NCBI GenBank assembly: GCA_034437255.1
Contig: DAOTUH010000390.1
Span: 1 to 56,035, forward strand
Origin: Anaerolineae bacterium
Lineage (GTDB): Bacteria; Chloroflexota; Anaerolineae; B4-G1; SLSP01
Direction of reading: 5' to 3'
DNA: 56,035 nt
Shown piece after piece: positions 12,724-52,446 of this stretch (positions are counted from its first letter, which is position 1; every line of letters starts with the position of its first letter). The position numbers and the translations under genes were made by a program. The notes beneath the pieces were generated by a model, which did not search any database, was not told the origin of the DNA, and saw nothing but the letters and a program-made list of their open reading frames with translations.

Positions 12724-15678
12724 TCAGGCCTTCTCATCGCGTCCATCCCCTGACGAAGATGCATCTTCCTCATCAGGTGGCGTCAACGGGCCGGTGCCAG
12801 GCGGAATGGTCAGCGGGCCGGTATCCGGCTTGCGCTGCCGCTGCCATCCCGATCCACCCAGGTGTACCTTGGTGCGACGAGCTCGCAACGCTCGGCCCAC
12901 CTCCCGCGCGGCCGTACGCAGCACGTCCTCAACGTCTACAGCCGATTGGAGCTCCCCCGAGATCTCGCGGATCAATTGCTCGCGGCGCGCTCGCGCGGCC
13001 GTCGCCCGTAACTGCGAGCGGTTCTGGACCGCCACGGCTGCCTGAGCCGCCAAGCTCATAAGACGACGTAGTTCTGCTTCTGAAACAGCGATGGGCGCGC
13101 TATAGACGCCGTTGATGAATCCAATCCACTGTCCGCCCACGACCAGAGGCACAATAATCACCCCCCGGCCCCCAAACCGCTCTGCATAGAATACACGCAG
13201 AGACTCGCCCATACGTTGATCACTGCGAACATCTTCGACAACCGTAGGAGCGTCCGCATGGATAAGCGCCGGAGCAGAGGGATAGTCTTGCAAACTATAG
13301 CGGCTATCGACGTGCACGCCCTCTGCGGCCCAACGTGCAACGACGGTGTTTTGCTTCGGCGCCTTATCTCCTTCCCATGGCTCGCTGAACAAATCTAGCG
13401 TAGTCGCCAGGTCCGCTTCCCCGAGCACGGTATGCTCACGCATCGCCGAGAGAATCTCGCCGTAGGATTGGGCCAGGTTAAGATCGGCGCTGGCGCTAAA
13501 GAGCAGTTGCAATTCCTCAGAGCGTCGTTGGGTCTCAGCCAGCAGGTTGATATTCTCAACCACCACAGCGACCTGATTGGCCAGAGCGCTGGTAAGGTCT
13601 CTGGTATCCGGATCTAAGAACTGATCTTCTTGATGACGAATGAGGGCGATGAAGCCAATCTGGGCCACAGCCGTGCGAATTGCCACGTAGAGCACACGGC
13701 GCAGGGCATAATCGCCCGCGAGGGGCAACTCACGGAAGAATGGGATGGGCCTACCCAGCTCTGGACTCGAGATTCCTCTGAAGAAAACCTGCAAATCCGG
13801 CGGCAGCACCACCGGTTGCCGCTCTTCCAACGCCTCGCTGCCATCGGGCAGGATAATTGCCTGGGGTAAGACTTCACCTGCCTCAAAATCTTGATAGGTA
13901 AAAATGCCCACCACCATATCCAGGCCTTGCGCCAGAATCAGGGCGATTTTACAGAGTGCTCCCTCGGCGCTTGTGGTCGTGGACGCCGTCTGTAACACCA
14001 GGTTCAACAGCTCCTGCTGGCGAGCCGTACGCTGTGTCTCCTCAAACAGCCGCGCATTCTCAAGCGCAACAGCAACCTGATCGCTGACGTTTTGTATTAA
14101 CTCCATCTCCTCATCGGTCCAAATGCGGTCGGGATCGGAGAGGGCCAGAACCGCCAACGTCTCATCACGGTACCGCATGGGCTCCATCAAATAAGGATCT
14201 CCCCCATCAACAACCAACTTGTGCGCCAACGTGCCCGCTACCAAATCTTCCGGCACCGACATAGGTAGAACCGGATGCACATCCACACGGTCGTACTCAT
14301 AAGCCTGGGGACGGATACGGTTGATAACCCTGGCCCAGCCACGTCGACGTTGCTCGCGCTGCAGGGTCTCCAGCTCAGTCAAGGCAGACTGAGTTTGCTC
14401 CAGCAACCGCGCATTCTGTAGCGCAATCGACACCTGATCCGCCAGCAGTTGCAAAACCTCCACATCCTCGTCGCTGAAAGCGCTGGGTTCCGTACTCTGA
14501 ACGTCGAGAACGCCCACGACGTTCTGATCCTGATCGACCAGAGGCAATGCGATCTCCGAGTGCGTGTCCGGTAGTTCCGGCGTATTGAACCAGACTGCAT
14601 CCCCGCCAACATCAAGCGCGATGCGCGGTTCTCCGCTCATGGCCACGTCGCCCACGATGCCTTGCCGACCAATGCGCAAACGGTGACCACGCGCCAACAT
14701 GCGCCGTCCCCCCTTAGAGGACGCAGCCCGTAACACCGCCCATTCTCGCCTGTCATCGAGCAAGAAGATGCCGGCATGATAATAACCGAACTGCTCCGAG
14801 ATGGCCTGCACGGTCCTCTCCAGCAGCGACAGAACCTCGCGCACCTGAGCCGCTTCACGGCTCACCAAGGCTACCCCCTCAAGCTGCCGCCCTCGCCATT
14901 CGAGCGCGGTCGTTCGCTCCTTGACCTGACGTTCCAGACTGACAATCAAATCGTGTAGACGGTCCCCCATCTTGTTAAAGGAGCGGGCCAAGAAACCGAT
15001 CTCATCCTTGGTCTCGATGTTGATCTTGTACTGCAGATCCCCGGCCCCGATAATAGCCACACCCTCTGCAAGCACCCGCAGCGGTCGAACCACCATGCGC
15101 TGCACAAAGAATAGCAGCAAAATGACCAGCACAATCACCAACGCCGCAATGGACAACGATGGCACAATCGCCAGAAGAGGTGGATCCACGACCGTCGCCG
15201 GTTCTCCCACCACCACGTAGAGCGCCTGTTCGCTTTGGGGCAAGCGTACCTCTTCGAAGACCAGATAGACCTTGTCATAGGGAACCACGGAGCGTACCAC
15301 GGGGGAGGAGACTGTGCTGAGATCGGCCAACCCGGCCGCGTAGGTATTGTTCTTGCCGGGCACAGAATGGTAAACAACCAGGCCATTCTCCATGACGACG
15401 GCCGCAAAAGCCAGCTCAGGTTGATCTTGGACGCTATCACGGAGGTACCCACCCAGGGCGGGTAGATCATAGATGGTAGTTATGAAAGGTGTCAGCGCCT
15501 CCACGGTTTGAACGAGCTGGCGGGTAATCATCTCGCCCTTGCTCAACCGTACGTCGCGGTACTGAGCCTGATATCGCCCCCCCACATAGGCCGATACCGG
15601 CAACAAGATCAGCAGGGGCAGGAGTCCCACAATAAGTACCAGCCGCCAGCGCAAACTCAGCGATCTCTCAAACATCAT
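12724..15678 (-). CDS. P2, GAF-stub sensor paralog: TM - about 150-aa periplasmic domain - TM - HAMP - GAF-A - three further GAF-like domains - GAF stub; no output domain seen
   Basis: HAMP 'GDLQYKINIETKDEIGFLARSFNKM'. GAF-A 'FGYYHAGIFLLD..GHRLRIG..LPDTHSEIALPL..DVQS'. Tail 'ARREQLIREISGELQSAVDVEDVLRTAAREVGRAL'. The ATG at 15678 has AGGAG 5 nt upstream (the ORF track uses GTG 15696). Confidence 0.85.
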   Translation of the reverse strand: MMFERSLSLRWRLVLIVGLLPLLILLPVSAYVGGRYQAQYRDVRLSKGEMITRQLVQTVEALTPFITTIYDLPALGGYLRDSVQDQPELAFAAVVMENGLVVYHSVPGKNNTYAAGLADLSTVSSPVVRSVVPYDKVYLVFEEVRLPQSEQALYVVVGEPATVVDPPLLAIVPSLSIAALVIVLVILLLFFVQRMVVRPLRVLAEGVAIIGAGDLQYKINIETKDEIGFLARSFNKMGDRLHDLIVSLERQVKERTTALEWRGRQLEGVALVSREAAQVREVLSLLERTVQAISEQFGYYHAGIFLLDDRREWAVLRAASSKGGRRMLARGHRLRIGRQGIVGDVAMSGEPRIALDVGGDAVWFNTPELPDTHSEIALPLVDQDQNVVGVLDVQSTEPSAFSDEDVEVLQLLADQVSIALQNARLLEQTQSALTELETLQREQRRRGWARVINRIRPQAYEYDRVDVHPVLPMSVPEDLVAGTLAHKLVVDGGDPYLMEPMRYRDETLAVLALSDPDRIWTDEEMELIQNVSDQVAVALENARLFEETQRTARQQELLNLVLQTASTTTSAEGALCKIALILAQGLDMVVGIFTYQDFEAGEVLPQAIILPDGSEALEERQPVVLPPDLQVFFRGISSPELGRPIPFFRELPLAGDYALRRVLYVAIRTAVAQIGFIALIRHQEDQFLDPDTRDLTSALANQVAVVVENINLLAETQRRSEELQLLFSASADLNLAQSYGEILSAMREHTVLGEADLATTLDLFSEPWEGDKAPKQNTVVARWAAEGVHVDSRYSLQDYPSAPALIHADAPTVVEDVRSDQRMGESLRVFYAERFGGRGVIIVPLVVGGQWIGFINGVYSAPIAVSEAELRRLMSLAAQAAVAVQNRSQLRATAARARREQLIREISGELQSAVDVEDVLRTAAREVGRALRARRTKVHLGGSGWQRQRKPDTGPLTIPPGTGPLTPPDEEDASSSGDGRDEKA

Positions 15679-15789
15679 TGACTCTCCTGACCTCACTATG
15701 AGAACTCAGATTTTCAGGAAGCACTAAAGGAGATGAGGGAAGACATAGCGCCAGAAATCCGAGTTTTGATCTATCTCGTCGTGAGTCCA

Positions 15790-16893
15790 CTATTCACCTC
15801 CCAGAGCAATTGGGAAATTTCGCTCAATGCGGGCCCCTATGAGCAGCTCCAACGGCACGTCAAGATCCCAGTACCGGGCTGCGACCAGGTTAACCACCAG
15901 CACATTATACCCAGGGACCCGGTGAGACAGCGATGCCGGCTCGGTGCCACGAAAGATTTCGACGGCCAGTTCTGCAGCTTCCTGACCTTGTGCGTAACCG
16001 GACACGGCGAGCCCCCCGACAGCCCCGCCTTCGTTTGTGTTGAGCTGCAAACCGAAAACCGGGATCGACGAATTCCCCAGCGTCCACCGCAACACCGTGC
16101 GTTCCGGTATGTGATCCCCATAATCATTCACCAAATTCTTGAAGTATCCTAGCAATAACACGTCAAAGGTGCTCGCTTTTTCCAAAACGAAGGTTTGCCA
16201 GGCCTCCCAGTCATTCGTCTGATGAAGCACTGTCTCTTCGACAAGAGCGTTCTCAGCATCCAGCAACGCTGCCCGCACCTCCTCACCTTCCGAGGTGCTG
16301 GCAATCGATTCATCGCTGAGAAACAAAACCTTTTCAGGAACCTGTCCTTTCATTGCGCTGGCGAGATGCACCGTTTGGAGTGGATATGTCCTCTCCAACA
16401 CCCCGGTTACGTTGGGGCGACTGAGTCCGTGCTCCCAGGCACTGCTATTCAGGCCACAGAAAATAAAAGGCAGGGTGGGGTCAGGATAGCCCCTGATCAC
16501 CCACCGCGCGGCCTCATCATCGGCAACGATCACCACGTCTGGATTGAACTCCTTGATTTCTTGAATTGCAGCCGTTGCCCGATCTTCGATTTCAACAGAA
16601 TCTCGTAACGTCTCGGCGCGCAGAGCAAATTCGGATAACACCAAATTCTGCGAAGCCTGCGCATAATCCAACTGGGCCAGTCTCTCCAGCACACCGGTCC
16701 GAATGCGGTTAGACCAGGGGTCTTCCTCTGAATAGGTACGAACAAAGAAGAGCCGGAGGGGCTGCTCCCCGACGAACTCGGCCGTTGGGATGGACGTCGA
16801 TGTGCGTGGCTCCTCCACTCGCTGGCCACACGACGCACCAGCCAAAGCGATCAAGAGCAGTATGACCCCACACCGGTAGCAGCGAGATATCAA
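15790..16893 (-). CDS. orphan solute-binding lipoprotein, PF04392 (ABC_sub_bind)-like
   Basis: Signal/lipobox 'LLLIALAGASCG'. It aligns by eye with the periplasmic domain of P4 ('LPFIFCGLNS' vs 'IPIVFCGINF'; 'IPVFGLQ..GGAVGGLAVSGYAQGQEAAELAVEIFRGTEP' vs 'VPVYGLW..HGIVGGKLTNARSQGEAAAEKAVEILEGTP'). The TTG start has GGAGG 6 nt upstream and overlaps the P3 stop (TTGA). Confidence 0.75.
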   Translation of the reverse strand: MISRCYRCGVILLLIALAGASCGQRVEEPRTSTSIPTAEFVGEQPLRLFFVRTYSEEDPWSNRIRTGVLERLAQLDYAQASQNLVLSEFALRAETLRDSVEIEDRATAAIQEIKEFNPDVVIVADDEAARWVIRGYPDPTLPFIFCGLNSSAWEHGLSRPNVTGVLERTYPLQTVHLASAMKGQVPEKVLFLSDESIASTSEGEEVRAALLDAENALVEETVLHQTNDWEAWQTFVLEKASTFDVLLLGYFKNLVNDYGDHIPERTVLRWTLGNSSIPVFGLQLNTNEGGAVGGLAVSGYAQGQEAAELAVEIFRGTEPASLSHRVPGYNVLVVNLVAARYWDLDVPLELLIGARIERNFPIALGGE

Positions 16894-18665
16894 GTTTTGC
16901 CTCCATCGCGGTCAGATTCTCGAACATCCTCGACTTCGGCCGGCACCAACTGCAAGCGAGCACGCTCCACCTGCAAGGCACGTCCTAACTCCTCGACGGC
17001 ACTGCGCAGGATCGCATCGACTTGTACAGATGCTCGAACCCGCCCCACGATTTCACTGCGAGCGCGCTCTTGAGTAGCCCGGAGTCGCGTCTCCTCAAGC
17101 AGTCGGGCGTTTTCCAGCGCCAGACCCAGTTGCTCGGTAACGTCCTCTGCCAACCGCCGGGCCTCCTTCGACCAGGGATGTGGCGACTCAAAGATGAGCA
17201 CGCCCAACGTCCTTCGCTGGATCCGAACCGGCACTCGCAGCAGATACATGCCATCCCTTTGAATCACTTGAACTTCCTCCAGGTGAGAAGGATCCTCCGA
17301 CAACGCAAACCCCTCCGGCACCCGATCTTCCAAGTGAACCCGATTGTAGGCGTAGGCAATCTCACGCTGACGTCGCATCAATGCCTGACGCCAACCGGTG
17401 ACAACCTCTTCCTCCTGATATTGCTGCAAGCGTTCCAAGGTCCTCCGGGTTTCGCCGAGCAAGCGGGTGTTCTCAATAAACACCGCCAAGCCATCAGTAA
17501 GGATTGAAAGGACTTGAACATCTTCTTCTGTGAATGCCTCCTCCAGCTTGCTCTGAATATCCAAGAGGCCGATCAAATCTCCTCGCGAAACCAACGGCAA
17601 GATCATCTCTGAAGAGGTCTCTGGCAGATTAGGGTTCGCGTACCAAGTCCTGGTCAGTTCAACCTGACCGATAACCTGAGGGCGTAAGGTAGCCGATGCC
17701 TGCCCCACCAGGCTATCACCTCCTACCCCCAGCTTATGCCTCTCCGCGATCATCTTTTTGCCGGCCTCGGAAGAAGCAGCGCGCAACACCATCCAGCCCC
17801 CCGTATCATCCAGGAGGAAAATGCCAACGTGGTAAAAACCAAACCGTTGCGCAATAAACGTGACCGCTCTGGTCAACAATTCATCTAGATCGAAAATGCC
17901 CGCTAACACGCGATTCAACTCGGCGATAGCCTGAAACTGATTCACACGTTCGCGCAGCTGTTGCGTTCGCACAGCCACGCGCTGCTCCAGGTCGCTGCGG
18001 GCGCGCTCAAGATTTTGCGTTGCATCTTGTAGGGACCCCAGCGCCTGACGCAAACTACGCATGTTCAGAAAGGTCACGCCACCACCAGCCGACAACAACA
18101 TAATTAACGTAAATACAACAAAGTTGACTTTGCTTGCTTCCCCCGCTGTAAACGGCGGAGTGTAAAGGGAGAACCCCATTAGCAGATGCAAGATGATGAA
18201 AAATGCTAGCACACCGCCACTTAAACGTAAGCTATAATCAGGCTTCTGCAAAATTCCGGAGACCGCAACGGGCCAGAAGAAGAGCACCCACGCGGACGAA
18301 TAGATACCGTCAAAAAGCGCAGAAGCCAAAGCTATGCCCAGATAGGTGCCCCACACAAAGATCTGAACGGTCGACTGGATTTTGCCCCGTTTCACGCGAT
18401 AGAAGCAGTAAGCGGAAAACGGAATGAAAGCCAGGGTAAGCATCGTTCCAAAGATATAATCTGGATGCGGCATGAGACCGACGAGGCCCACACTCAAGAA
18501 GACCGTGAGTAGCGCAATCACGATGTCCATCGTAATGAAGAGCAAGGTGTTGAAAACTCGGCCTAGCCGCTGTATCTCCTCATCAGGATGCTCAACGCTG
18601 ATCAGTCGCTCCCAAAGTTCACGAATCCTCGACGTCGGGCGCTGATGACTTTCGAATTGCGTCAT
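16890..18665 (-). CDS. P3, GAF-stub sensor paralog: class-I polytopic membrane module (about 6 TM) - coiled coil - GAF-A - half-GAF - GAF stub
   Basis: 'FGFYHVGIFLLDD..HKLGVGGDSLVG..LPETSSEMILPL..DIQS'. Tail 'LENARLLEETRLRATQERARSEIVGRVRASVQVDAILRSAVEELGRAL'. The ATG overlaps the P4 stop (ATGA), and GAGGAGG is 5 nt upstream. Confidence 0.85.
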   Translation of the reverse strand: MTQFESHQRPTSRIRELWERLISVEHPDEEIQRLGRVFNTLLFITMDIVIALLTVFLSVGLVGLMPHPDYIFGTMLTLAFIPFSAYCFYRVKRGKIQSTVQIFVWGTYLGIALASALFDGIYSSAWVLFFWPVAVSGILQKPDYSLRLSGGVLAFFIILHLLMGFSLYTPPFTAGEASKVNFVVFTLIMLLSAGGGVTFLNMRSLRQALGSLQDATQNLERARSDLEQRVAVRTQQLRERVNQFQAIAELNRVLAGIFDLDELLTRAVTFIAQRFGFYHVGIFLLDDTGGWMVLRAASSEAGKKMIAERHKLGVGGDSLVGQASATLRPQVIGQVELTRTWYANPNLPETSSEMILPLVSRGDLIGLLDIQSKLEEAFTEEDVQVLSILTDGLAVFIENTRLLGETRRTLERLQQYQEEEVVTGWRQALMRRQREIAYAYNRVHLEDRVPEGFALSEDPSHLEEVQVIQRDGMYLLRVPVRIQRRTLGVLIFESPHPWSKEARRLAEDVTEQLGLALENARLLEETRLRATQERARSEIVGRVRASVQVDAILRSAVEELGRALQVERARLQLVPAEVEDVRESDRDGGKT

Positions 18666-20956
18666 TTCGCCTCCTCTTGATCACCAACCAGGGCCAAGCG
18701 GGCTACAGCGCGTTCGGCGCCCAACGCCTGCCCCAAATCACGCAGCGCTTGTTCCAACACCGCCTCAATTTCTAACTGAGCCCGGAGACGATCGGTAATT
18801 TCACCGACTTGCTGCTCGTGTTGGGCAAGCGCGCGGGTTTCCTCGAAAAGACGCGCGTTCTCCAAGGCCAAGCTGGCTTGATCCACGACAGATTGCACCA
18901 GCTCGCGCTCCTCATCGCTCCAGCGCGAGCCGCCGTCCTGTCGTTCCAGCTCTAATGAAGCTAACACCTGTCCTCGCAAGGAGATATCCGCTCTCAGACA
19001 GCGAGCGTCCTTCTTGGAGGACAACGTTGTACTCTCATCTACCGGAATCGGCCGGACATCCACGCCCGTGTACTGGAAGGCGACCGGTCGTGTGGTCATC
19101 CGCTCTTCCCAAACCCTACGAGACTGTTCACCGTAAACGCGCTCCAACTCTTCCAGCGCCTGCTGACTTTCTTGATATAGACGCACGTTGTCGATAGCCA
19201 ACGCCAACTGGTCTGCCATGGTCTCCAATATGGTGATATCCTCTTCATCAAAGGCCGCCGGCTGAGTTGATTGAACGTCGAGGACGCCCACCAATTCTCC
19301 TCGGACGCGGAGAGGTAAGGTCATCTCCGAACGTGTCTCAGGGAGGTCTGGGTTATTAAGCCATATAGCGTCCTCGCCCACATCAAGAGCGATACGCGAC
19401 CGGCCCGTCTGCAAGACTGAGCCCACGATGCCTACCTCTCGAGTTAGGCGGTGACCGCGCTCCAGCATCCGCCGCCCTCCCTCGGACGAGGCCGCCCGCA
19501 AGACTGCGTACGCTCCGCTTTCATCGACCAAAAAAATGCCCGCGTGGTAATAGCCAAACTGCCGCGAGATGCGCTCCACCGTCGCGGTGAGCAGGATGTT
19601 GAGATCGCGGAAGCCGGCGGCATCGCGGACGACCTCGGCCGCCATCTCCAGTTGCCAGCCGCGTTTTTCCAAATCGGCGGTTCGCTGCGCAACGCGCTCC
19701 TCCAGCGTGGCCCGGGTTGCTTCCAGCGCCCGGTTCGTCTCTCGCAGATCGGTCTCCACCTCGCGCCGTTGCCGGAGATTGACCAGCTGGACAACCACGA
19801 TGGCCAACAGTCCCGTGATGACGCCGGCCACCGGCCAGATGATGCGTCTGTACTGCTCATAGAACGTCGGGGGCCTATTCGTGATTTCGCTATCTTCCGG
19901 TAAGCGATTGACGGAAATGCCAAATCGCTCCAACTGTTGGTAGTCAAATATGTAGCGATTAGGACTGTCTTTGAGAACGGCCACCTCACTCACCGGCGTT
20001 CCCTCCAAAATCTCCACCGCCTTCTCCGCTGCAGCTTCACCCTGGGAACGAGCGTTGGTCAACTTCCCGCCGACAATACCGTGTCCCATGTAGAAATCCC
20101 ATAAGCCGTAGACGGGCACGCGGGTGTTCTCATAAATGAGTTCGATGCTCTCCTCATAGGTGTAGAAGTTTCCAGCTCGATCACGATTCAGCAACACGAG
20201 CAGGATCAAGGTATGTTCCGACACATTCCCCAGCTCCCGCAACATCCCATCTAAGACCGGATTGGTGTAGTATCGAAATTCAACCCTATCCGCATATTGA
20301 GGCGTGATCTCACGTAGCAAACGCTGGTAGACCTGGCCCGTGGTCGTGGCATCGTTCACCACCACGATCTGACGGGTGTCAGGATGAACACGCAGCATCA
20401 GATCCAGCGTATCGGTTATGTCCACGTCCTCCACCACACCGGTGAAGGTATCCTCAACGCCTGCCAACATCTCATCCTCAAAAAAGTTGATACCACAGAA
20501 AACGATGGGAATTCCTGGGAAAAGTGTCTCGTGGTATTTCAGCACAAAGTCAAAGGCGTTATTGTCACTGATTAACACAAGATCTAATGGGGCATCCCGG
20601 TATTTTCGCCAATAGAGACTGTACAGACCCTGATAGTACTCCTCGTCCGGGGCGAAGCGTTTCGTATCCATGTACTCAACATAGACTTCTGGATCCAGAT
20701 CGCTTTCAGCAAACACCTCCTGCATACCTTGCATGACCCCATCAGTCCAGCTGAGACCGCGATGATAAGAATGCAACACCAATACGTGAGGCACTGGCTC
20801 TTGGGCGACTGCATTCGGTGGCAGCACGACAGTGGCAAGCGAGGCCAGTATGATCAAAACTGCCAACCATCCCGTGCGCCAGTCTTTGGCACCCAGGCCA
20901 CACGCCTTCACGGTCTTGGCGATCATCGCTACTAGACGTTCAAGCAGAACCCACAT
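18662..20956 (-). CDS. P4, GAF-stub sensor paralog: signal/TM - fused PF04392-like solute-binding domain - TM - coiled coil - GAF-A - half-GAF - GAF stub
   Basis: The periplasmic part 'HVLVLHSYHRGLSWTDGV..IPIVFCGINF..' (nt about 19860-20795) is homologous to the free SBP at 15790-16893. GAF-A 'FGYYHAGIFLVD..LPETRSEMTLPL'. Tail 'LENARLFEETRALAQHEQQVGEITDRLRAQLEIEAVLEQALRDLGQAL'. Confidence 0.85.
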   Translation of the reverse strand: MWVLLERLVAMIAKTVKACGLGAKDWRTGWLAVLIILASLATVVLPPNAVAQEPVPHVLVLHSYHRGLSWTDGVMQGMQEVFAESDLDPEVYVEYMDTKRFAPDEEYYQGLYSLYWRKYRDAPLDLVLISDNNAFDFVLKYHETLFPGIPIVFCGINFFEDEMLAGVEDTFTGVVEDVDITDTLDLMLRVHPDTRQIVVVNDATTTGQVYQRLLREITPQYADRVEFRYYTNPVLDGMLRELGNVSEHTLILLVLLNRDRAGNFYTYEESIELIYENTRVPVYGLWDFYMGHGIVGGKLTNARSQGEAAAEKAVEILEGTPVSEVAVLKDSPNRYIFDYQQLERFGISVNRLPEDSEITNRPPTFYEQYRRIIWPVAGVITGLLAIVVVQLVNLRQRREVETDLRETNRALEATRATLEERVAQRTADLEKRGWQLEMAAEVVRDAAGFRDLNILLTATVERISRQFGYYHAGIFLVDESGAYAVLRAASSEGGRRMLERGHRLTREVGIVGSVLQTGRSRIALDVGEDAIWLNNPDLPETRSEMTLPLRVRGELVGVLDVQSTQPAAFDEEDITILETMADQLALAIDNVRLYQESQQALEELERVYGEQSRRVWEERMTTRPVAFQYTGVDVRPIPVDESTTLSSKKDARCLRADISLRGQVLASLELERQDGGSRWSDEERELVQSVVDQASLALENARLFEETRALAQHEQQVGEITDRLRAQLEIEAVLEQALRDLGQALGAERAVARLALVGDQEEAK

Positions 20957-20958
20957 TG

Positions 20959-22644: not shown

Positions 22645-22660
22645 TGTCTGCCTCTTCCTT

Positions 22661-22696
22661 ACTATGATCTAACCTATGACCTGACCTATGACCTGT
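22661..22696. repeat. 3 x 12-bp tandem repeat (ACTATGATCTAA / CCTATGACCTGA / CCTATGACCTGT) spanning the P6 stop and the P6-P5 spacer
   Basis: Read directly from the sequence. On the minus strand the unit is (A/T)CAGGTCATAGG, just 5' of the P5 RBS AAGGAAGAGG. Confidence 0.7.
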
Positions 22697-25274: not shown

Positions 25275-25341
25275 AAGCCATTATTTATTAACAGACCCTA
25301 AGGTTGCACGCCACGGCATGCAACCTATTCGCTCAAGCAGT

Positions 25342-34030: not shown

Positions 34031-34289
34031 CGCTCACCTCTCCGCCTTTCCCACCATCCTTCCCTTCCTCCATTTCCGATGTATCAGCAGGAACCGACGT
34101 GGAACTTCGGGCCACAAGAAACAACAAGATAATGATCCCCGCCCAGGGAAGGTACAAGGATCGCATCACGGGATCGGGACGCGCTACGGCGAACATGACT
34201 AATAACGGTCGCGTGAACAGGATCAAACAGAGGCCGAAGAGCAAGATGTGAAACTCCGATCGTCCTAACAACGTCCTTAGCCTTTTCAT
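34023..34289 (-). CDS. small (88 aa) two-TM membrane protein, translationally coupled to P8
   Basis: Two hydrophobic spans ('FHILLFGLCLILFTRPLLVMFAV' and 'LYLPWAGIIILLFLVA') and an acidic tail. It starts 7 nt after the P9 stop, and its stop overlaps the P8 start by 8 nt. The position is analogous to small DUF485/YjcH-type partners of SSF transporters, but no sequence similarity is claimed. Confidence 0.5.
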   Translation of the reverse strand: MKRLRTLLGRSEFHILLFGLCLILFTRPLLVMFAVARPDPVMRSLYLPWAGIIILLFLVARSSTSVPADTSEMEEGKDGGKGGEVSDA

Positions 34290-34296
34290 CTTCAGA

Positions 34297-41486: not shown

Positions 41487-41507
41487 AGCTCCAAACTCCG
41501 CATCCGT

Positions 41508-43169: not shown

Positions 43170-43181
43170 AAGCGCACCTCC

Positions 43182-45044: not shown

Positions 45045-45048
45045 ACCA

Positions 45049-46770
45049 TCAGCCTCCGATCACCGGAGATTCTTCATCCACCAGCTGCAAAACAACCTCA
45101 TCCAAGGCCAGGTGCTGACCGAGCTCTCGAACCGTCGCTGCAAGCACGTCGTCAAGATTGAGTGAGGCTCGCATTTGGGTCGTCACTTCACTGACCAGCT
45201 GCTCCTGTGCCGCACGGCGTCGTGTCTCCTGATAAAGCCGGGCATTCTCCAACGCCAACCCAATCTGCTCACCCAGCTGCATCAATAATTCACGCTCATC
45301 CGTGCTCCAAGAGCCACTCTCTGCCGCTTTGCGAGCGTTGATTACTCCCACAATTTGTCCTCGCACCCGGACAGGTACAGCTACGACCGTGCCTTTTTCT
45401 TCAGCCATTGCCGTCTCGCCTGTGCGCATAACTCGGAGCGAGTACTTGTCAATGATGTCCTCAGCTACGTTCAGACCCAACTGATCGCGCGTGAACCCCA
45501 AGCCCTTCTCTCTTTTAAGCAGGTCTTGCCAGCCCGCGCGGCTTACCTCACCATACGCCCGACGTTCCGCCTCCAGGCGCCTCTCTATCTCTCGCACCAA
45601 CTGCACGTTGCTGATAACCAGGGCGATCTGATCAACCAGCGTCTGCAACACCAACACGTCCTCTTCCCCAAACGCATCGATGTGTTTCGATTGTACATCC
45701 AGTACACCGATAACGCGCTCCCGAGTCTGCAGCGGCAAAGCAACCTCAGAACGGGTCTCCGGCAGTTCAGGATTGTCGAAGTGGACAGCATCCTCACCGA
45801 CATCGCGGGCGATGCGCGCCTCGCCATGTCTCGCAACGTAGCCAACTACCCCCGTCTCCCCCACGCGCAGGCGGTGCCCCTGTGCCAACATACGTTGGCC
45901 TCCCTCAGATGAAGCTGCGCGCAATTCTGCGTACTCCTCCGTGGCATCGAGGAAAAAGACCCCGGCGTGATAATAACCAAAGCGTCTGGAGATCAAGTTG
46001 ACGACCCGACGCAGCAACCGATCCAAATCACGAATGGCAGAGGTTTCCCGCGCCACCTGGGCAGCCGTCGCCAACTGAACGGACCGCCGTTCCAGGGCCT
46101 CTGTGCGCTCTTCGACCAGCTTGTGCAGTTGGTTCTGGCGCAAATTCAGGTGTTGGGTCAGCTCCTGGCTTTTACCCAGCGCGTCGGACAGTTTCAAGAG
46201 AAGATAGCTCTGTGCCAGATTAGCCAGGACACCCAAGATCACCACCAGGGTGCCTCCGCTCAACCAGGCCAGTGGATCTATCACATTGGCCTGGACCGAA
46301 GGCGGGACGACCAGACGCCCGGTCGCGTAGGCCCATCCAAAGACACCCAACACCTCCGCCACCACCACCAGCACGCCAATCCCGGCCACTCGGCCCCAGA
46401 ATACACTGGTGAAAAAGGCAAACGCCAGCATAAAGACATGGCCCTCACCACTAAGTCCAAAATAGTAATAGTTGAGACAGCCAAGCCCGAAGAGAATAAC
46501 CAAAAAAGTACCTGTCTGCAAAGCGTATGTGCTCTTCTTCCAGAAGGCGACGACTAAGAAGAAGAGATACGCGCCCACATAGAAAGGAATAACCGCCAGG
46601 TTCTGGTTTACGTAGTCATAGACGCCGCTGACAACGACCGCTATCCCTCCCAGAACAACCAAAAGGTTCAAAATCACGTGAATCAGTTGCCGCCGGAAGG
46701 TTTCGACGTTTTCAACCGAGGAGTCCCGATCTTGCACTTCTTCTACGCTGACTCGTTCATCTTCAGCCAT
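45049..46770 (-). CDS. P14, GAF-stub sensor paralog: class-II polytopic membrane module - coiled coil - GAF-A - half-GAF - GAF stub
   Basis: 'GLSGEGHVFMLAFAFFTSVFWGRVAG'. 'FGYYHAGVFFLDA..AASSEGG..LPETRSEVALPL'. Tail 'LENARLYQETRRRAAQEQLVSEVTTQMRASLNLDDVLAATVRELGQHL'. The ATG at 46770 has GGAG 6 nt upstream (the ORF track uses TTG 46776). Confidence 0.85.
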   Translation of the reverse strand: MAEDERVSVEEVQDRDSSVENVETFRRQLIHVILNLLVVLGGIAVVVSGVYDYVNQNLAVIPFYVGAYLFFLVVAFWKKSTYALQTGTFLVILFGLGCLNYYYFGLSGEGHVFMLAFAFFTSVFWGRVAGIGVLVVVAEVLGVFGWAYATGRLVVPPSVQANVIDPLAWLSGGTLVVILGVLANLAQSYLLLKLSDALGKSQELTQHLNLRQNQLHKLVEERTEALERRSVQLATAAQVARETSAIRDLDRLLRRVVNLISRRFGYYHAGVFFLDATEEYAELRAASSEGGQRMLAQGHRLRVGETGVVGYVARHGEARIARDVGEDAVHFDNPELPETRSEVALPLQTRERVIGVLDVQSKHIDAFGEEDVLVLQTLVDQIALVISNVQLVREIERRLEAERRAYGEVSRAGWQDLLKREKGLGFTRDQLGLNVAEDIIDKYSLRVMRTGETAMAEEKGTVVAVPVRVRGQIVGVINARKAAESGSWSTDERELLMQLGEQIGLALENARLYQETRRRAAQEQLVSEVTTQMRASLNLDDVLAATVRELGQHLALDEVVLQLVDEESPVIGG

Positions 46771-46802
46771 ACCCAACTCCTAAACTAAATGCCCAGGCGT
46801 CG

Positions 46803-49800
46803 TTAGCTTTCCTCATCAAGTCCACCGGAATCCACCAACCGGACGGTAACTTTCTCCAGATCCAACGCCTGATAGATTGCATCGGCGGCTGTGCGTAAGA
46901 CCGTCTCCACATCGAGCCGTTCTCGCACCCGCCCCGTGACGTCCCCCAGCAGGTGCTCGCGCGCGGCTGCGCGCTGGCTCTCCTCAAACAGGCGCAGGTT
47001 CTCCGCCGTCGACGCCATGCGTTCGGTCAACAGTTTCGCCATCTCGATTTCGTCGGCGGTCCAACTGCGCCCGGCGCTCTTCAAGGCCACCGCGCCAATG
47101 GGCTGGCCCCGGACGAGAGCGGGAATCACCAAAATCTCCTCCGCGACCTCGCCATCCTGTCCGTCCCGTGCCAGCACCACAACCGCTCGTTGGCGCACGG
47201 CCTGTTGTATGGACGCCTGCAGCTCATCGTCCACCACGATGTCACCGGAACGTTCCAGTTGATAGATGAGCTCTGGCTGCGTTTGGAGGTACTCCTCCCA
47301 TGCCTGCTGAATGTAGCGCCGTTGCATCGTCTCCATCTCTGCCAGCGCGGATTGCGTTTGCTCCAATAAGCGGGCGTTCTCGATAGCCGTCGCGATCTGA
47401 CCGACCATGGTCTGGAAGGCCGTGACATCCTCTTCGGTGAAAGCCGCGACATCCGTAGAATGGACCGTCAACGCCCCGATGGGTTTGCCCCGGCTGAGCA
47501 ACGGCAGAGCCATCTCCGAGCGCGTTTCCGGTAACAGCGGGTGATCCAACCCTCGCGTGCTTTTGGTGACGTCAGTCACGATGTGCGGTTGCCCATCCGA
47601 GATGCAAACCCCGACCAACGAGTTGTCGTTCACGGGAAGCTGGTAACCTTCATCCAGCATCTTTCGCCCCGACACACCCGTGCCGCCACGCAGGACAGCC
47701 CACCGTCCAGACCGGCGGGACCATTCACCGCGCTCACTGATTAAGAAGAGCCCCACGTAGTAAAGATCGAAGCGCTCGCGCACAAGATCCACCACACGCT
47801 GCAGCAACGTATCGACGTCCAGAATGCCAGTGACAGTATAAGCCACATCGGCGGCGATTTGAAGCTGATTGCTGCGGCGTTCCAACGCGAGCATCGCTTC
47901 CTTGAGGGGGGTGATATTGCGGGAGACGCCAAAGACGCCCACAATCTCGCCCTCTCTATCTCGCATGGGCAGCTTCGACGTCGAGACCCACGCCACTGTA
48001 CCGTTGGGCCACGTCTCTTTCTCCTCCTTCTCCAGAATCGGCTCGCCGGTGCGGATAATCTCTTGTTCGTCTTCGTAAGCTTCGCGGGCGTGCTTTTCCG
48101 TGAAGAAGTCGAAGTCGGTCTTGCCGATGATTTCCTCCCGGCTTTCCACGCCGAACCAGTCCAGCAGTGCCTGACTCACCTCAATAAAGCGGCTCTCGCG
48201 ATCCTTGAAGAAAATGTGGTCCAACGTGTTCTCCAGGAGAACGTGGAGCAAATACTCTTGATAAGCAAGGGCTTCTTCTGCTTCTCGACGCTCGGCGATC
48301 TCCCGCTGCGCCTGTTCGTAGAGCCGGGCATTGGCAATCGCGTTTCCCAGCTGATCGGCCAAGAGCTGCAATGTGGTGATATCCATCTCGCCAAAGGCCC
48401 TGGGTTCCGTGCTCTGAATGGTCAAGGCGCCGATGGCTTCTCCACGGCTGACCAGAGGCAACGCCATCTCCGAACGAGTATCTGGCAGCCAGGGATTATC
48501 AAACCGCGAGGCCTCCTGGCCCACGTCCAGTGCAACGTGAGCCTCCTTTTCCGCCACAGACCGGCCGATCATGGACTCGGCCCCCACACGCAACTTGTGC
48601 TGGCGAGCGACCATCTCGCGGCCCGCCTCTCCTGTGCCGGCTTGGAGCACGGCCCACTCGCCCGAATCATCGACCAGGAACAAGCCGGCATAGTAGAGAT
48701 CGAACTGCTCACGGACCAACTCGACAACGCGCTGAATCAGGGTCTCGGTCTTCAGGAGCGAGCCGGTCGCTTGGGCGACCTCTGCCGCCGTCTGAATACG
48801 CGCGGCACGTCGTTCGGCTCGCTCCACAAGCTGACTTCCATACAGAGCCCTGCTGATATCCCGCTGAAGAATGTCGTAAATCTCTCCACGCTGCGGACGG
48901 GCATCGAAGAGCACAAACCCAAGTTGGTGCTCGCGGAAATACAGTGGCTCAACGTGCAAACTGAATCGCTGAGACGGTAGCAGATCCGAAGGCACCAATT
49001 TCTGGGAAGGGAAACGTATCTCTTCGGATATAAGATGCTGCCCGTTCGCGTAGGCCAGAAGCAAGCGGGCTCCCGTCGTCGGCGCCAAGGGATTCTCATA
49101 CAGCGAAAGATAACAACCGGGGATATCCAGACGTTCCATGGCTTCGGTGAGGCGCCGCATCATCTCATCCACAGCCAGTGAGATGCTAAGCGTCTGGCCA
49201 ATTTGGGCTAGCAGCGTCCGCAAACCCACCTCCCGGAAACGTCGATCCGCCTGTACCCGGGCGGCCCACTCGCCAACTTTGACGCGACCTCGCTGCCAGA
49301 GCTCTTCTGCGCGCATCAGCGACCGCACCGTGTCCAAGGCCACCAGCAGCTCCCGGCGCATCGCAGAGAGCACATCTTGCCAACACGCGATGTTGACGTC
49401 GTTCTCAGCGCTGGCGCGAAGTATTTCCTCCAAACAAGCCAAAAACTCGTCACTGGATGTCGCATTGATGTCCACAATCAGTGCGTCCAGCAGTTTCGTG
49501 AGCCTTCCATCCTCATCCTGCCCCGACAACGCCGGCGTTACATCGCGCATCGCCGCCAGAACCTGGGTGACGACCGCATCAGACACCACGAAGTCAGAGT
49601 CAGACTCGGAAACAGAGACCTTCGACAGATCCGGAGAGGCTACCAGTTCAACACTACGTGCTTCACAGCCACAGGACTCGCGCACCACGAGATGAGGCGG
49701 CACTTTGATAATCTCCGGCAGTGATTCTTCACCCTCGAGCTCTCTGATGAGCAGCTGAGCCGCCCGGCGACCCATCTCGGCCCAGGGCTGATCGACGGAT

Positions 49801-50552
49801 GTCAACGGAGGTGTAGCAAAACGGGCTTCGGGACGATTATCGAACCCTACCACCGCCACGTCACGAGGAATGTATAAACCTCTGGCTGGTAACCCTTCAA
49901 CCACGTCCATGGCTAACTGATCGTTGGCCGCTACCACCCCATCAAAGGAAACCTTTCGTTCCTCTATCAGCAGTCGCAAAGCCTTTAAACCTGTGCCCCG
50001 CGCAAAGTCACCAGGAGCAACGAGTTCAGGATCGACTTCCAATCCATGATCGCGCAGTGCGTGCCGATATCCACGGTAGCGTGCCTCAGCCTCGATGTGA
50101 CCCTCCGGCCCACGAATAAACGCGAGTCTTTCACAACCATGCACGTCCAGGAGGTGTGTCACAGCATCATAGGTACCCTGGTAGTTATCAATGAGCACGT
50201 TAGGCATACCCGGCAAGTGCGATGAGATGTTCACCTTAGGAATTCCAGCGTACGTCTTCAATAACGCCAGAACTTCTTCGTGATTCACGTAGTGAGCCAG
50301 TATTCCTCCCCAGATCACGAGACCATCGAGTCGTTCAGCACTTGCCAGCTTGTAGAGGACATTGCACTGCGCCAGATGCTCTTCTGGGATACGCAGCGGT
50401 TCTGCTCGAAAACTGATCAAATTGACGTCGTGCTCACGGGCAACCGTATCCACGCCCCTCCAAAGCGCGCGACACGTTGGATCCTCAGCTCCGTAGATCA
50501 ACAGGCCAATCGTAGGGCGTGTGAGTGCTGTCGTGTTGGATGGTTCCATCAT
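46803..50552 (-). CDS. P15, soluble GAF-stub sensor paralog: LacI-type periplasmic-binding-protein fold (no HTH) - helical region - GAF-A - PAS - GAF-A - half-GAF - GAF stub
   Basis: The N-terminal part 'IGLLIYGAEDP..LDGLVIWGG..NVLIDNYQGTYDAVTHLLDVHGCERLAFIRGPEGHIEAEARYRGYRHAL..AANDQLAMDVV..VVGFDN' is a LacI/GalR ligand-binding core lacking the DNA-binding headpiece. PAS 'FFKDRESRFIEVSQA..GKTDFDFF..WVSTSKLPMRDREGEIVGVFGVSRNIT'. Two GAF-A copies (LPDTRSE and LPETRSE). No TM segment. The start ATG at 50552 follows AGGAG by 9 nt and sits 1 nt after the P16 stop (the ORF track extends to 50630). Confidence 0.85.
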   Translation of the reverse strand: MMEPSNTTALTRPTIGLLIYGAEDPTCRALWRGVDTVAREHDVNLISFRAEPLRIPEEHLAQCNVLYKLASAERLDGLVIWGGILAHYVNHEEVLALLKTYAGIPKVNISSHLPGMPNVLIDNYQGTYDAVTHLLDVHGCERLAFIRGPEGHIEAEARYRGYRHALRDHGLEVDPELVAPGDFARGTGLKALRLLIEERKVSFDGVVAANDQLAMDVVEGLPARGLYIPRDVAVVGFDNRPEARFATPPLTSVDQPWAEMGRRAAQLLIRELEGEESLPEIIKVPPHLVVRESCGCEARSVELVASPDLSKVSVSESDSDFVVSDAVVTQVLAAMRDVTPALSGQDEDGRLTKLLDALIVDINATSSDEFLACLEEILRASAENDVNIACWQDVLSAMRRELLVALDTVRSLMRAEELWQRGRVKVGEWAARVQADRRFREVGLRTLLAQIGQTLSISLAVDEMMRRLTEAMERLDIPGCYLSLYENPLAPTTGARLLLAYANGQHLISEEIRFPSQKLVPSDLLPSQRFSLHVEPLYFREHQLGFVLFDARPQRGEIYDILQRDISRALYGSQLVERAERRAARIQTAAEVAQATGSLLKTETLIQRVVELVREQFDLYYAGLFLVDDSGEWAVLQAGTGEAGREMVARQHKLRVGAESMIGRSVAEKEAHVALDVGQEASRFDNPWLPDTRSEMALPLVSRGEAIGALTIQSTEPRAFGEMDITTLQLLADQLGNAIANARLYEQAQREIAERREAEEALAYQEYLLHVLLENTLDHIFFKDRESRFIEVSQALLDWFGVESREEIIGKTDFDFFTEKHAREAYEDEQEIIRTGEPILEKEEKETWPNGTVAWVSTSKLPMRDREGEIVGVFGVSRNITPLKEAMLALERRSNQLQIAADVAYTVTGILDVDTLLQRVVDLVRERFDLYYVGLFLISERGEWSRRSGRWAVLRGGTGVSGRKMLDEGYQLPVNDNSLVGVCISDGQPHIVTDVTKSTRGLDHPLLPETRSEMALPLLSRGKPIGALTVHSTDVAAFTEEDVTAFQTMVGQIATAIENARLLEQTQSALAEMETMQRRYIQQAWEEYLQTQPELIYQLERSGDIVVDDELQASIQQAVRQRAVVVLARDGQDGEVAEEILVIPALVRGQPIGAVALKSAGRSWTADEIEMAKLLTERMASTAENLRLFEESQRAAAREHLLGDVTGRVRERLDVETVLRTAADAIYQALDLEKVTVRLVDSGGLDEES

Positions 50553-50553
50553 C

Positions 50554-52446
50554 TTATTGTGCTCCTTCATCCGATCGCTGCGGCGCCGCTCTCGTCTGTG
50601 TGCCGAGCTGCAGGTAGGCACTCCCGCCAAGCGTCTCCACCAAGGATTTCGCCGTAATCTGAAGCAGCGATCTCATATCCGACGCTTGCCGCATCCGATC
50701 TGTAACGTCGTGGGCTGCTTGCTCACGAGCCACGCGCCGCTGCGTCGCCTCTAGCAAACGAATGTTCTCCAGCACCACCGCTGCCGTCGCCACCAACGCA
50801 GTGTAGAGTTGTCGTTCGCTCACGCCAAAGGGGTGCACGGTGTAATACGTGACCACCAGCTGCGCAATGGTTCGCCTGCCCAACCGCACCGGAACGATGG
50901 CCAGGCTGCGCGCCGCGGACTGGTGCATCAACTGCGCCAGCTGCTTGTGATACATCTCTGGAACGTGACTGGCCGGCAGCTCACTCATATTCTCTATAAA
51001 TAAGGGGCTCTCTGACGCCACCAGCAGCTCTCGCAAGTATAGCGTCTCCGGAAGGGTGGGTCGGGCGCCATCTTCTTCAGGAAAAGAGATGTCGTCGCCC
51101 CGCAACTCTGCTGCCACAGTGATATCGTTGGTCTCAGCGTCTAGGGTACAGATAAAACCGCGCCTGGGACTATACTCCCGGACCATCTCCAAGATCACAC
51201 CGTAGACATCGCGCACTTGACGGGCAACCGCCATACGCTGCGCCATCCGGTAGAAAGGACTGGTCGCCTCAAGGATCCCAACCTCCTGAGCAAAGCGCCG
51301 CGCGTTTTCCACCATCACGGCCAGCTGACTGGCAAGATACTCCAAAGAACGCACGTCATCTTCGTCAAAGGCATTTTCTTCCGTACTCTGCACGTCCAAC
51401 ACCCCGATGACTTGTCCGGCGATCCCCAGGGGCAGCGTCGCCTCCGAACGGGTGGCCGGCAGCAAGGGATTATCAAAATGCACGGCGTCTTCACCCACGT
51501 CCAGGGAAATGCGGGGCTTGCCGTGCTCCACCACCCATCCGACCATGCCTTCACCCCGAACCAATTGATGCTCCTCGGCCAGCATCTGCTGCCCGCCTTC
51601 TGACGACGCGGCCTTCAGCACGGCGGTGTCGCCGGTTTCTGAGACCAGAAAGAGGCCCGTGTGGTAGAAGCCAAACTTCTCAGAGATCAAACGCACAGCC
51701 CGATACAACAACTGCTCCAAATCAAAAATCGAACTGATGATCCGCACGACTTCTGCGCCCGCTTCCAAATGCCAGGCGCGTCGCTGCATGGCGTAGTTGG
51801 CCTCTTGAAGCGTCAAAGCGCGACGATCCAGCTCCTCTTGTTGCTCGCGGAGATCTGTTGAGCGCTGAAAGAATTCTTCTAGCTGTCGCGATAGGCGCCT
51901 GAACAAGGCCCCGGCCGAGGCCACCAGAAGCCCACCGCTCAACGTGAAGACCATCACCCCGCTGAGCAGGTTCAACCAGGGTCGTGGGACCTCAGAGAGT
52001 ATACCCGGCCCCGCGACTTGGCCCCTCATGATCGCCCAGGCGATGCCCAACAACGTCAGCATATCAAGGCCCAGAGCGTAAAACCCCGCCCGCTGGCCGA
52101 TCAAAATGGTCATCATGACCGGTAGAGCCAGCAGAAAGACTCGCCCATCAGCACCCCAGCCGGAAAAGACAAGATCGGACAGGCCCAAAATGTAGATCAA
52201 CGCCAACATCAACCATTTTTTCAACGGGTAGTAGGGCTTGTGACCAAAGTGCAAGGCCAGCATACTCCCATAGGCCACGACATAGACCGCAATCAAACCA
52301 AAGTTCTGCTGTGAAAAGGCGGTGTATACACCAAATGCCAAAGCGCCGGCCCCGCCATACACCGCGGCCCGAAATGCCTGATCAATCACGCGTTGTCGCA
52401 GCCGCTCTGTAACCGTCTGATAGGAACGTCCCTGCTTTTCGCTCAC
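50554..52446 (-). CDS. P16, GAF-stub sensor paralog: class-II polytopic membrane module - coiled coil - GAF-A - complete second GAF - GAF stub
   Basis: 'GWGADGRVFLLALPVMMTILIGQRAG'. 'FGFYHTGLFLVSE..AASSEGG..LPATRSEATLPL'. Tail 'LENIRLLEATQRRVAREQAAHDVTDRMRQASDMRSLLQITAKSLVETL'. The GTG start has GGAGG 5 nt upstream. Confidence 0.85.
   Translation of the reverse strand: MSEKQGRSYQTVTERLRQRVIDQAFRAAVYGGAGALAFGVYTAFSQQNFGLIAVYVVAYGSMLALHFGHKPYYPLKKWLMLALIYILGLSDLVFSGWGADGRVFLLALPVMMTILIGQRAGFYALGLDMLTLLGIAWAIMRGQVAGPGILSEVPRPWLNLLSGVMVFTLSGGLLVASAGALFRRLSRQLEEFFQRSTDLREQQEELDRRALTLQEANYAMQRRAWHLEAGAEVVRIISSIFDLEQLLYRAVRLISEKFGFYHTGLFLVSETGDTAVLKAASSEGGQQMLAEEHQLVRGEGMVGWVVEHGKPRISLDVGEDAVHFDNPLLPATRSEATLPLGIAGQVIGVLDVQSTEENAFDEDDVRSLEYLASQLAVMVENARRFAQEVGILEATSPFYRMAQRMAVARQVRDVYGVILEMVREYSPRRGFICTLDAETNDITVAAELRGDDISFPEEDGARPTLPETLYLRELLVASESPLFIENMSELPASHVPEMYHKQLAQLMHQSAARSLAIVPVRLGRRTIAQLVVTYYTVHPFGVSERQLYTALVATAAVVLENIRLLEATQRRVAREQAAHDVTDRMRQASDMRSLLQITAKSLVETLGGSAYLQLGTQTRAAPQRSDEGAQ

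Follow-up and report, generated by a model that had tools for sequence, protein, structure and literature searches.

The window analysed here, a 56,035-nucleotide stretch of Anaerolineae contig DAOTUH010000390.1 (assembly GCA_034437255.1), carries between positions 12724 and 52446 an array of 15 minus-strand open reading frames (ORFs; P2 to P16) which, on the ORF listing and alignment, all share one C-terminal module, hereafter the chassis. Diverse input modules precede this chassis, kinase and receiver genes bracket the array, and related arrays recur in other genomes. What is new here is a set of GAF-based sensors without a kinase, organised as a conserved battery. The array is spaced like an operon, with 4-bp overlaps at four junctions and other gaps mostly of 41 bp or less, the widest inside it measuring 266 and 415 bp. 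We consider it an even call whether the whole minus-strand block 5889-55592, from the kinase at one end to the receivers at the other, is one conserved Anaerolineae signalling unit.

The last ~340-380 residues of the 15 proteins align throughout and comprise, in order, a signalling helix, a highly conserved GAF domain (GAF-A), a long helix, a reduced second GAF domain (GAF-B) and a tail. A hidden Markov model (HMM) of the chassis, built from 13 of the 15 receptors, scores its 13 source proteins at 424-532 bits (E 1e-130 to 1e-163), a similarity far beyond chance, and the variants P2 and P16 at 407 and 300 bits, both being matched in pieces, two in the case of P16. Pairwise chassis identity is 31-60% within the 13 core members and 21-27% for P2. 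Variant receptors are P2, with two extra GAFs ahead of the tail, P15, with an extra GAF-A-type domain, and P16, with a full-size second GAF. An earlier note, made from the sequence alone, had proposed such a common chassis in 15 minus-strand genes; the ORFs lie where it placed them, their chassis align end to end at the HMM scores just given, and the motifs it quoted are present. All 15 proteins match GAF families (PF01590, PF13185 or PF13492) above the gathering score, at 57-148 bits. A short beta-rich segment singled out in the earlier note does exist, but it is the C-terminal half of the reduced second GAF (GAF_3 positions 54-128). The AlphaFold model of the P10 chassis (predicted local distance difference test score, pLDDT, 83) begins with a helix and a complete GAF, continues with a 50-residue helix and a small GAF-like domain, and ends in two helices of 47 and 16 residues. 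Against solved GAFs, Foldseek gave this model target-normalised TM-scores of 0.75-0.83, the best PDB matches being the tandem GAFs of PDE2A, PDE5 and CyaB2 (1mc0, 3lfv, 1ykd) and GAF-PHY modules of phytochromes; GAF-B and tail modelled separately (pLDDT 80) gave weak, partial GAF matches with E 0.02 or worse. Whatever the input, the most conserved parts of 362 chassis from other genomes are the GAF-A motifs and a tail core, 'ALESARLYeeTQRRA', a pattern that would fit a common partner or a common ligand.

None of the 15 receptors has a catalytic or DNA-binding domain. Pfam searches at E up to 0.01 and NCBIfam searches at curated cut-offs found no HisKA, HATPase, GGDEF, EAL, HD, cyclase, PP2C, STAS, HTH or REC domain in any of them, sub-threshold NCBIfam matches to models of output proteins span only GAF or HAMP parts, and the isolated last 76 residues have no Pfam match even at E=10. 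The receptors are not sensor histidine kinases, as the 15 show neither a HisKA/HATPase_c match nor an H-box pattern, unlike both flanking kinases, which score strongly for HisKA/HATPase_c in Pfam searches. Nor do they qualify as methyl-accepting chemotaxis proteins (MCPs), since MCPsignal (PF00015) is absent from the 15 receptors and only MCP-type input domains (4HB_MCP_1, TarH, dCache_1, HAMP) were found. An NKFDE-like motif is likewise absent from all 15 (regular-expression search), which together with the lack of a catalytic domain sets them apart from tandem GAFs that bind cyclic nucleoside monophosphates (cNMPs). Cysteine stays below 30% frequency at every position of the chassis. The bilin-binding cysteine of phytochrome and cyanobacteriochrome GAFs is missing, and the PDB matches to these proteins span only the generic C-terminal half of a GAF and the alpha1-beta1 junction; in an alignment to free methionine-R-sulfoxide reductase (fRMsr; 3mmh), all three catalytic Cys positions are replaced. 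Profile, structure and PDB searches thus bear out the proposal that the 15 proteins lack a recognisable output domain, and no catalytic, DNA-binding or phosphotransfer domain emerged in their conserved region.

The tail motif had been described as lying directly before the stop codon. Instead, it is followed by ~25-45 further residues, made up of a helix of 16 residues, a short strand-like stretch and an acidic end. Nor is the tail a new element: on profile comparisons it is homologous to the alpha1-beta1 stub with which a further GAF would start. In its first half, a profile built from GAF-B and tail aligns to the C-terminal half of solved GAF domains; over its last ~45 positions it matches helix alpha1 and strand beta1 (residues ~10-53) of cyanobacteriochrome and phytochrome GAFs (8w26, 6oap, 8k9o, 2lb5). 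Searched against 1.84 billion representatives, this profile best matched poly-GAF giants, 10-20 times each at GAF-GAF junctions; it is too generic to delimit the family, its 70,797 hits including every GAF-GAF junction of such giants. Residues 661-1000 of the hybrid kinase at the end of the array (P1, the end kinase) form a full chassis whose 'tail' runs into a complete GAF. Based on these tail matches and the end-kinase chassis, the receptors resemble a multi-GAF hybrid kinase reduced to its sensory half and ending after beta1 of the next GAF.

Mean-field direct coupling analysis (DCA) of 503 chassis sequences (effective number, Meff, 437) recovered known strand pairings of GAF-A (50-69/70 and 50-140) and coupled the N-terminal strand of GAF-B (210) to its own last strand (261) at rank 6. 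The strong tail couplings are all intra-tail (311-335, 316/317-338, 330-339 and 333-342), the best pair between tail and remainder ranking only 125, and AlphaFold left the last 15 residues as coil. The idea that the tail completes GAF-B by circular permutation or strand complementation was rejected, since DCA shows a self-complete GAF-B sheet and a tail coupled within itself; the unpaired terminal strand in AlphaFold and the end kinase, in which a reduced GAF-B precedes a complete GAF, also count against it. The couplings suggest that the tail is a self-contained helical hairpin; as DCA is blind to the distinction between intra- and inter-chain contacts, the tail may alternatively form a four-helix cap in a dimer.

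The chassis can be classed by fold as a tandem GAF regulatory module and by descent as the sensory portion of a multi-GAF hybrid kinase. Like the tandem GAFs of PDE2A/PDE5/PDE10 and CyaB2, among which are its best structural matches, it has two GAFs linked by a long helix. However, those modules precede a catalytic domain and bind cNMP via an NKFDE-type pocket, whereas the chassis has neither, its GAF-B is reduced and it is preceded by a membrane sensor. With multi-GAF hybrid kinases such as the end kinase and L069:4303-8889, a gene in one of the other loci described below, it shares a homologous GAF-A, GAF-B and junction (209-420 bits), and the receptors have HAMP and dCache inputs in common with these kinases. 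Unlike them, the receptors stop after alpha1-beta1 of the next GAF and have no HisKA, HATPase_c or REC.

To follow the chassis beyond the window, we searched with that of P10 and found at least 4,400 proteins at E 1e-10 or better among the matches listed, the named ones being 'GAF domain-containing protein' from Anaerolineae metagenome-assembled genomes (MAGs). A genome scan with one genome per species gave at least 590 matches, the best 79 loci of which were analysed, each as a 21-kb view. Seventy-eight of these 79 are labelled Chloroflexota or a lineage within it, mostly Anaerolineae, Anaerolineales or Thermoflexales, with Thermoflexus- and Anaerolinea-labelled relatives among them; L067, labelled Propionivibrio, is probably mis-binned, since its layout is the same as that of L061, L062 and L068. 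ORF calling with the HMM identified 397 chassis ORFs in the 79 loci, all co-directional, with up to nine per 21 kb and at least three in 65 loci. The distance from the end of the tail to the stop codon has a median of 11 residues and is 60 residues or less in 368 of 389 complete ORFs (about 95%). Where the tail is not terminal it is followed by further GAFs or belongs to an apparent fusion of two receptors, and L069:4303-8889 is a fusion of the order dCache-HAMP-chassis-HisKA-HATPase-REC-REC. Literature searches found no paper on such arrays, and neither NCBIfam nor Pfam holds a curated family for chassis or tail; in this sense the novelty claimed in the earlier note stands, although the family is very common in Anaerolineae and not peculiar to this genome.

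The system is not, as had been proposed, without an output; the array sits in a conserved bracket of two receivers and a kinase at its head and a chassis-bearing hybrid kinase at its end (Table 1). In at least 18 other loci the array opens with two receivers, REC (~130 aa) and REC (~150 aa), to which some loci add a kinase, and the window has the same head. The ORF of the first head receiver extends to 55778, its REC domain beginning at MNAKILYIEDN, while the second overlaps the start of the head kinase by 16 bp. The GAF of the head kinase is only 26-32% identical to receptor GAF-A; homologous head kinases are found in L015, L021, L040, L044 and L058. A hybrid kinase closes the array in six of the 79 loci, and all six of these kinases contain a GAF-A-type domain (209-420 bits). 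The end kinase of the window is soluble, without a transmembrane (TM) segment in a hydropathy scan, and carries a GAF-A-type domain at residues 147-330 in addition to its full chassis at 661-1000 (HMM 242 and 329 bits). These two GAF-A-type domains are 52-59% identical to GAF-A of P6, P8 and P9, which is within the between-receptor range. We considered whether the first 146 residues of the end kinase form a conserved docking domain and rejected this, as they are present elsewhere only in L056. The Methyltransf_19 gene between array and end kinase is probably not a core part; a role as a CheR-like adaptation enzyme is unsupported, with a homologue in one of the 79 loci, again L056. That locus has the same methyltransferase arrangement as the window, and its end kinase also has the unusual N-terminal domain of ~140 residues.

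Other genes accompany the arrays in some lineages. A co-directional gene for a ParA/MinD-like ATPase (AAA_31) lies inside the arrays of 22 of the 79 loci, often just ahead of the end kinase (e.g. L005:17214-17987, L070:7468-8250, L071:12979-13764 and L046:4139-4927). Directly after the end hybrid kinase, L070 and L071 encode a fusion of PALP, a pyridoxal phosphate (PLP)-dependent enzyme, with a receiver (L070:11057-12751, L071:16730-18406), and this PALP-REC protein could be an enzymatic output of the relay in these genomes. At L004:21652-21713 and upstream, the array is followed by a small ORF and a SpoIIAA-like (STAS) gene, which hints at a partner-switching link in that lineage.

The inputs joined to the chassis are diverse, and 14 of the 15 receptors have TM segments in a simple hydropathy scan. 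Pfam supports most of the input classes proposed earlier. HAMP domains are present in P2, P6, P7, P9 and P13, accompanied by 4HB_MCP_1 in P6, TarH in P13 and dCache_1 in P9; a PF04392 domain is fused in P4; and P15, the exception in the hydropathy scan and predicted to be cytoplasmic, combines a LacI-type domain (Peripla_BP_1/3) with PAS ahead of a chassis scoring 456 bits at residues 909-1274. The group previously called class II corresponds to MASE11 (PF20969; P11 90.8, P14 54.3 and P16 73 bits against a cut-off of 27.3), a membrane sensor family described in bioRxiv 10.1101/2021.11.05.467447. The transporter-like assignment of P8 reaches only sub-threshold scores. Class I, the polytopic module formed by the N-terminal ~215-230 aa of P3, P5, P10 and P12, has no Pfam family, and the grouping held in part: the modules of P5, P10 and P12 are mutually similar by BLAST, but that of P3 is not significantly similar to them. 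A homologue search with this membrane module alone gave nothing, probably through filtering of hydrophobic sequence. In a local pool searched by phmmer without the bias filter, it is the commonest input (136-149 of ~500 chassis-bearing sequences) and in complete ORFs always occurs with a chassis, making it a candidate for a new MASE-type domain.

The earlier note had described the receptor genes as consecutive. The array is indeed co-directional, but four separate genes for secreted or solute-binding proteins are interleaved with the 15 receptors (Table 1). The orphan NMT1 protein has an N-terminal hydrophobic segment and homologues inside the arrays of 10 other loci, the orphan PF04392 protein has homologues in 12 other loci, and the 574-aa protein, which has no Pfam, NCBIfam or PDB match, is conserved beside receptors in L011. 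Fusions of PF04392 to a receptor as in P4 recur in other loci (the 'CS' genes), and binding-protein genes are interleaved or receptor-fused in many of them. Sensor kinases that depend on solute-binding proteins are exemplified by LuxP-LuxQ and TorT-TorS. The arrays are similar in that orphan binding-protein genes adjoin membrane sensors without ATP-binding cassette (ABC) permease genes, or are fused to them in P4 and the 'CS' genes; unlike LuxQ and TorS, however, the sensors of the array have no kinase domain.

Within the window, chassis similarity does not follow input class. The chassis of P10 (class I) is nearest to those of P7 (HAMP type, 60%) and P11 (MASE11, 55%), and that of the transporter-like P8 is nearest to that of P9 (dCache, 59%). 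This independence suggests that input modules were exchanged at some point, in keeping with the module swapping raised in the earlier note. Orthologues of P10 in other MAGs are 67-69% identical, compared with 60% or less for its paralogues at home, which indicates that the paralogues are old and individually maintained. One paralogue, P8, is missing from three other assemblies of the locus: a Joint Genome Institute (JGI) contig, GCA_964457985.1 and an ENA contig with k=127 in its name. In these assemblies (L001, L002 and L003) the P9 gene ends with the tail of P8. We compared the deletion junction at the DNA level in the JGI contig (L001) alone. Aligning L001:15195-15415 to 31059-34519 of the window showed that the gene there is a P9/P8 chimera and that the switch lies inside a 34-bp stretch identical in both genes, TACGAGGACACCCAGCGCCGCGCCGCTCGTGAGC, encoding YEDTQRRAARE. 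The deletion allele is likely to be natural and to have arisen from unequal recombination between neighbouring paralogues at the conserved tail core. Assembly collapse is an unlikely cause, given that the identical core of 34 bp is shorter than the k-mer of the ENA assembler (127).

Table 1 Features of the signalling block, listed from head to end of the array.
Feature	Coordinates	Strand	Evidence
Head receiver 1: single-domain REC	55218..55592	-	Pfam Response_reg E 1e-28
Head receiver 2: single-domain REC, 139 aa	54770..55189	-	Pfam Response_reg E 2.5e-20
P17, head histidine kinase: TM, HAMP, GAF, HisKA, HATPase_c	52470..54785	-	Pfam
P16: MASE11 module, GAF-A, full-size second GAF, tail	50554..52446	-	Pfam MASE11 3.7e-20
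P15: LacI-type ligand-binding domain, extra GAF-A-type domain, PAS, full chassis	46803..50630	-	Pfam, chassis HMM
P14: MASE11 module, chassis	45049..46776	-	Pfam, chassis HMM
P13: TarH-like periplasmic domain, HAMP, chassis	43182..45044	-	Pfam, chassis HMM
P12: class-I polytopic module (without Pfam family), chassis	41508..43169	-	Chassis HMM, hydropathy, BLAST
P11: MASE11 module, chassis	39753..41486	-	Pfam MASE11 1.2e-25, chassis HMM
P10: class-I polytopic module, chassis; protein modelled with AlphaFold	38050..39756	-	Pfam, chassis HMM
Orphan solute-binding protein, NMT1/THI5 type, 20 bp 3' of P10	37016..38029	-	Pfam NMT1 4.6e-44
P9: polytopic segment, dCache_1, HAMP, chassis	34297..36981	-	Pfam, TM prediction
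P8: SLC5/MctP-like transporter-like module, chassis	30956..34030	-	NCBIfam MctP E 3.9e-12, sub-threshold; 11 TM segments
574-aa protein, hydrophobic N-terminal segment, 4-bp overlap with P8 end	29235..30959	-	ORF, hydropathy
P7: periplasmic domain, HAMP, chassis	26727..29162	-	Pfam, chassis HMM
Orphan binding protein, Peripla_BP_4 (sugar type), 3' of P7	25342..26616	-	Pfam 2.2e-36
P6: 4HB_MCP-like domain, HAMP, chassis	22686..24926	-	Pfam, chassis HMM
P5: class-I polytopic module, chassis	20959..22644	-	Pfam, BLAST, chassis HMM
P4: TM, fused PF04392 binding domain, TM, chassis	18662..20956	-	Pfam ABC_sub_bind 1.5e-06; two TM segments
P3: polytopic module, chassis	16890..18665	-	Pfam, chassis HMM, TM prediction
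Orphan binding protein, PF04392, 4-bp overlap with P3 end	15790..16893	-	Pfam 2.2e-11
P2: TM, HAMP, chassis core, two more GAFs, tail, Pro/Gly-rich acidic extension	12724..15696	-	Pfam, 4 GAF stretches
Methyltransf_19: S-adenosylmethionine (SAM)-dependent methyltransferase, between array and end kinase	11773..12561	-	Pfam 1.3e-53
P1, end kinase: 1800-aa hybrid kinase, 7 GAFs, HisKA, HATPase_c, two REC	5889..11291	-	Pfam

The longest P15 ORF overlaps the end of P16 by 77 bp (50554-50630), which places the true P15 start probably 3' of 50630; public gene calls give 1216 or 1249 aa. Outside the block, positions 16-1431 (+) hold a gene for a Fur-family regulator followed by one for a ZnuA-type metal-binding protein, which looks like a Zur/zinc-uptake pair unrelated to the array. 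A 469-aa ORF at 2619-4028 (+) fuses MobA-like nucleotidyltransferase and HAD-family phosphatase domains and lies where the GC content of the window is highest (65%). Neither Rfam nor tRNA scanning of the window gave a match.

Judging from sequence and gene order, we see roughly balanced chances that the kinase-less receptors signal by protein contact to a shared phosphorelay. A ligand would bind the receptor head directly or via the adjacent binding proteins, the signal would pass down the HAMP or signalling helix through the tandem GAFs, and readout would occur by protein-protein contact with the co-encoded phosphorelay kinase or kinases. The soluble end kinase is the main candidate partner, since it has the same GAF-A/chassis module inside, and it could pair with the receptors via homologous GAF and coiled-coil surfaces; the two single-domain head receivers may then serve as the diffusible output. 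This reading is favoured by the recurrent bracket, by the GAF-A-type domain found in every end kinase and by the joining of chassis and kinase in one protein, L069:4303-8889. Sensors that work by binding another kinase are known in RetS and LadS, which act on GacS, retain kinase-like domains and make contact via DHp. The concept proposed here is the same, but the common module is a GAF and DHp is absent. Several observations weigh against signalling by contact. Synteny and common modules are no proof of contact, and the very strong conservation of the GAF-A core and loops fits a shared small-molecule ligand equally well. The end kinase is visible in only six of the 79 loci, as expected of 21-kb views of longer arrays, many arrays lack a head kinase and run from REC-REC directly into receptors, no DNA-binding or effector protein is conserved near the arrays, and this window has no ParA-like gene.

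The logic of the array may be said to resemble that of many chemoreceptors feeding one kinase, but built from GAF domains. With MCPs it has periplasmic inputs in common (4HB_MCP, TarH, dCache, HAMP), and as in MCP systems many paralogous receptors with a conserved cytoplasmic end are encoded together with a kinase and CheY-like single-domain receivers. It differs from MCP systems in lacking MCPsignal and genes for CheA, CheW, CheR and CheB, in building its cytoplasmic part from GAFs and in that the window's methyltransferase is not conserved. Chemotaxis clusters also encode ParC or PpfA, and in the same way the ParA-like ATPase is often encoded with the receptor arrays. We tentatively raise the possibility, although the odds are against it, of a GAF-based counterpart of the chemoreceptor array, in which dozens of kinase-less TM receptors would be docked on a soluble multi-GAF hybrid kinase by homotypic GAF-A/chassis contacts. 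The resulting supercomplex would be associated with the membrane, would in many genomes owe its position to a ParA-like ATPase, and would integrate many nutrient cues into phosphorylation of two CheY-like receivers; this would be an unrecognised, Anaerolineae-specific class of multi-receptor signalling machine.

Among other explanations, GAF-A could be a pocket for one common intracellular small molecule, for instance a nucleotide messenger or a metabolite, which we regard as rather unlikely as the principal account. Receptors would then integrate the outside cue with this ligand, or bind it under signal control, and the end kinase would sense the same ligand with its own copies of GAF-A, an arrangement that is compatible with contact signalling and does not exclude it. 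GAF-A is the most conserved region across the 362 chassis from other genomes, and its conserved FGFYH.G, GHRL.VG, NP.LPETRSE.ALPL and LDVQS motifs include strand, loop and helix residues that line the pocket in other GAFs; two histidines, His50 and His81, are conserved too. It further aligns with small-molecule-binding GAFs of the fRMsr and Lcd1 branch, keeping RSE..PL and LD..S, and both the end kinase and P15 contain two domains of the GAF-A type. However, known ligand motifs (NKFDE, the Cys triad and the bilin cysteine) are absent, conservation alone cannot tell a pocket from a protein interface, and the order of sensor, HAMP or signalling helix, and GAF is that of a transducer and not of a primary sensor. 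Both protein-protein contact and ligand binding by GAF-A remain live candidate mechanisms. The resemblance to fRMsr, whose structures supply some of the best single-domain matches in Foldseek and sequence searches, would also allow GAF-A to be a cryptic enzyme by analogy with this GAF-fold reductase, a proposal made highly improbable by the replacement of all three catalytic Cys positions and the lack of a conserved cysteine in the chassis.

The receptors might instead act on partners encoded elsewhere, such as transporters, metabolic enzymes or motility machinery, their two-component neighbours being only loosely linked. The head kinase is optional, only REC-REC being consistent as a head, and the accompanying genes vary (methyltransferase, ParA-like ATPase, PALP-REC and, beside L004, SpoIIAA-like). 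Tight co-directional packing with 4-bp overlaps and short gaps, the recurrence of the REC-REC head and GAF-A-bearing end kinase across genomes, and the existence of a chassis-kinase fusion (L069:4303-8889) make unlinked partners an improbable explanation in our view. The chassis resembles the sensory part of a multi-GAF hybrid kinase truncated behind beta1 of the following GAF, which could also mean that the receptors are decayed, truncated histidine kinases without present function. We give this scarcely any weight, because the 15 intact ORFs here and the 397 in 79 loci share an end point and a conserved tail, database relatives number at least 4,400 and orthologues are kept across MAGs; this conservation effectively refutes decay.

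Anaerolineae, whose physiology is poorly understood, occur in abundance in sediments, microbial mats, digesters and wastewater. Much of their sensory apparatus seems to consist of the chassis family, whose members nevertheless carry no annotation beyond 'GAF domain-containing protein'. Should the receptors converge on one common kinase, they would provide a second case, after chemotaxis, of many modular receptors feeding one kinase, based on a different fold, and if true this would show how a sensory repertoire can grow by recombination at a constant chassis.

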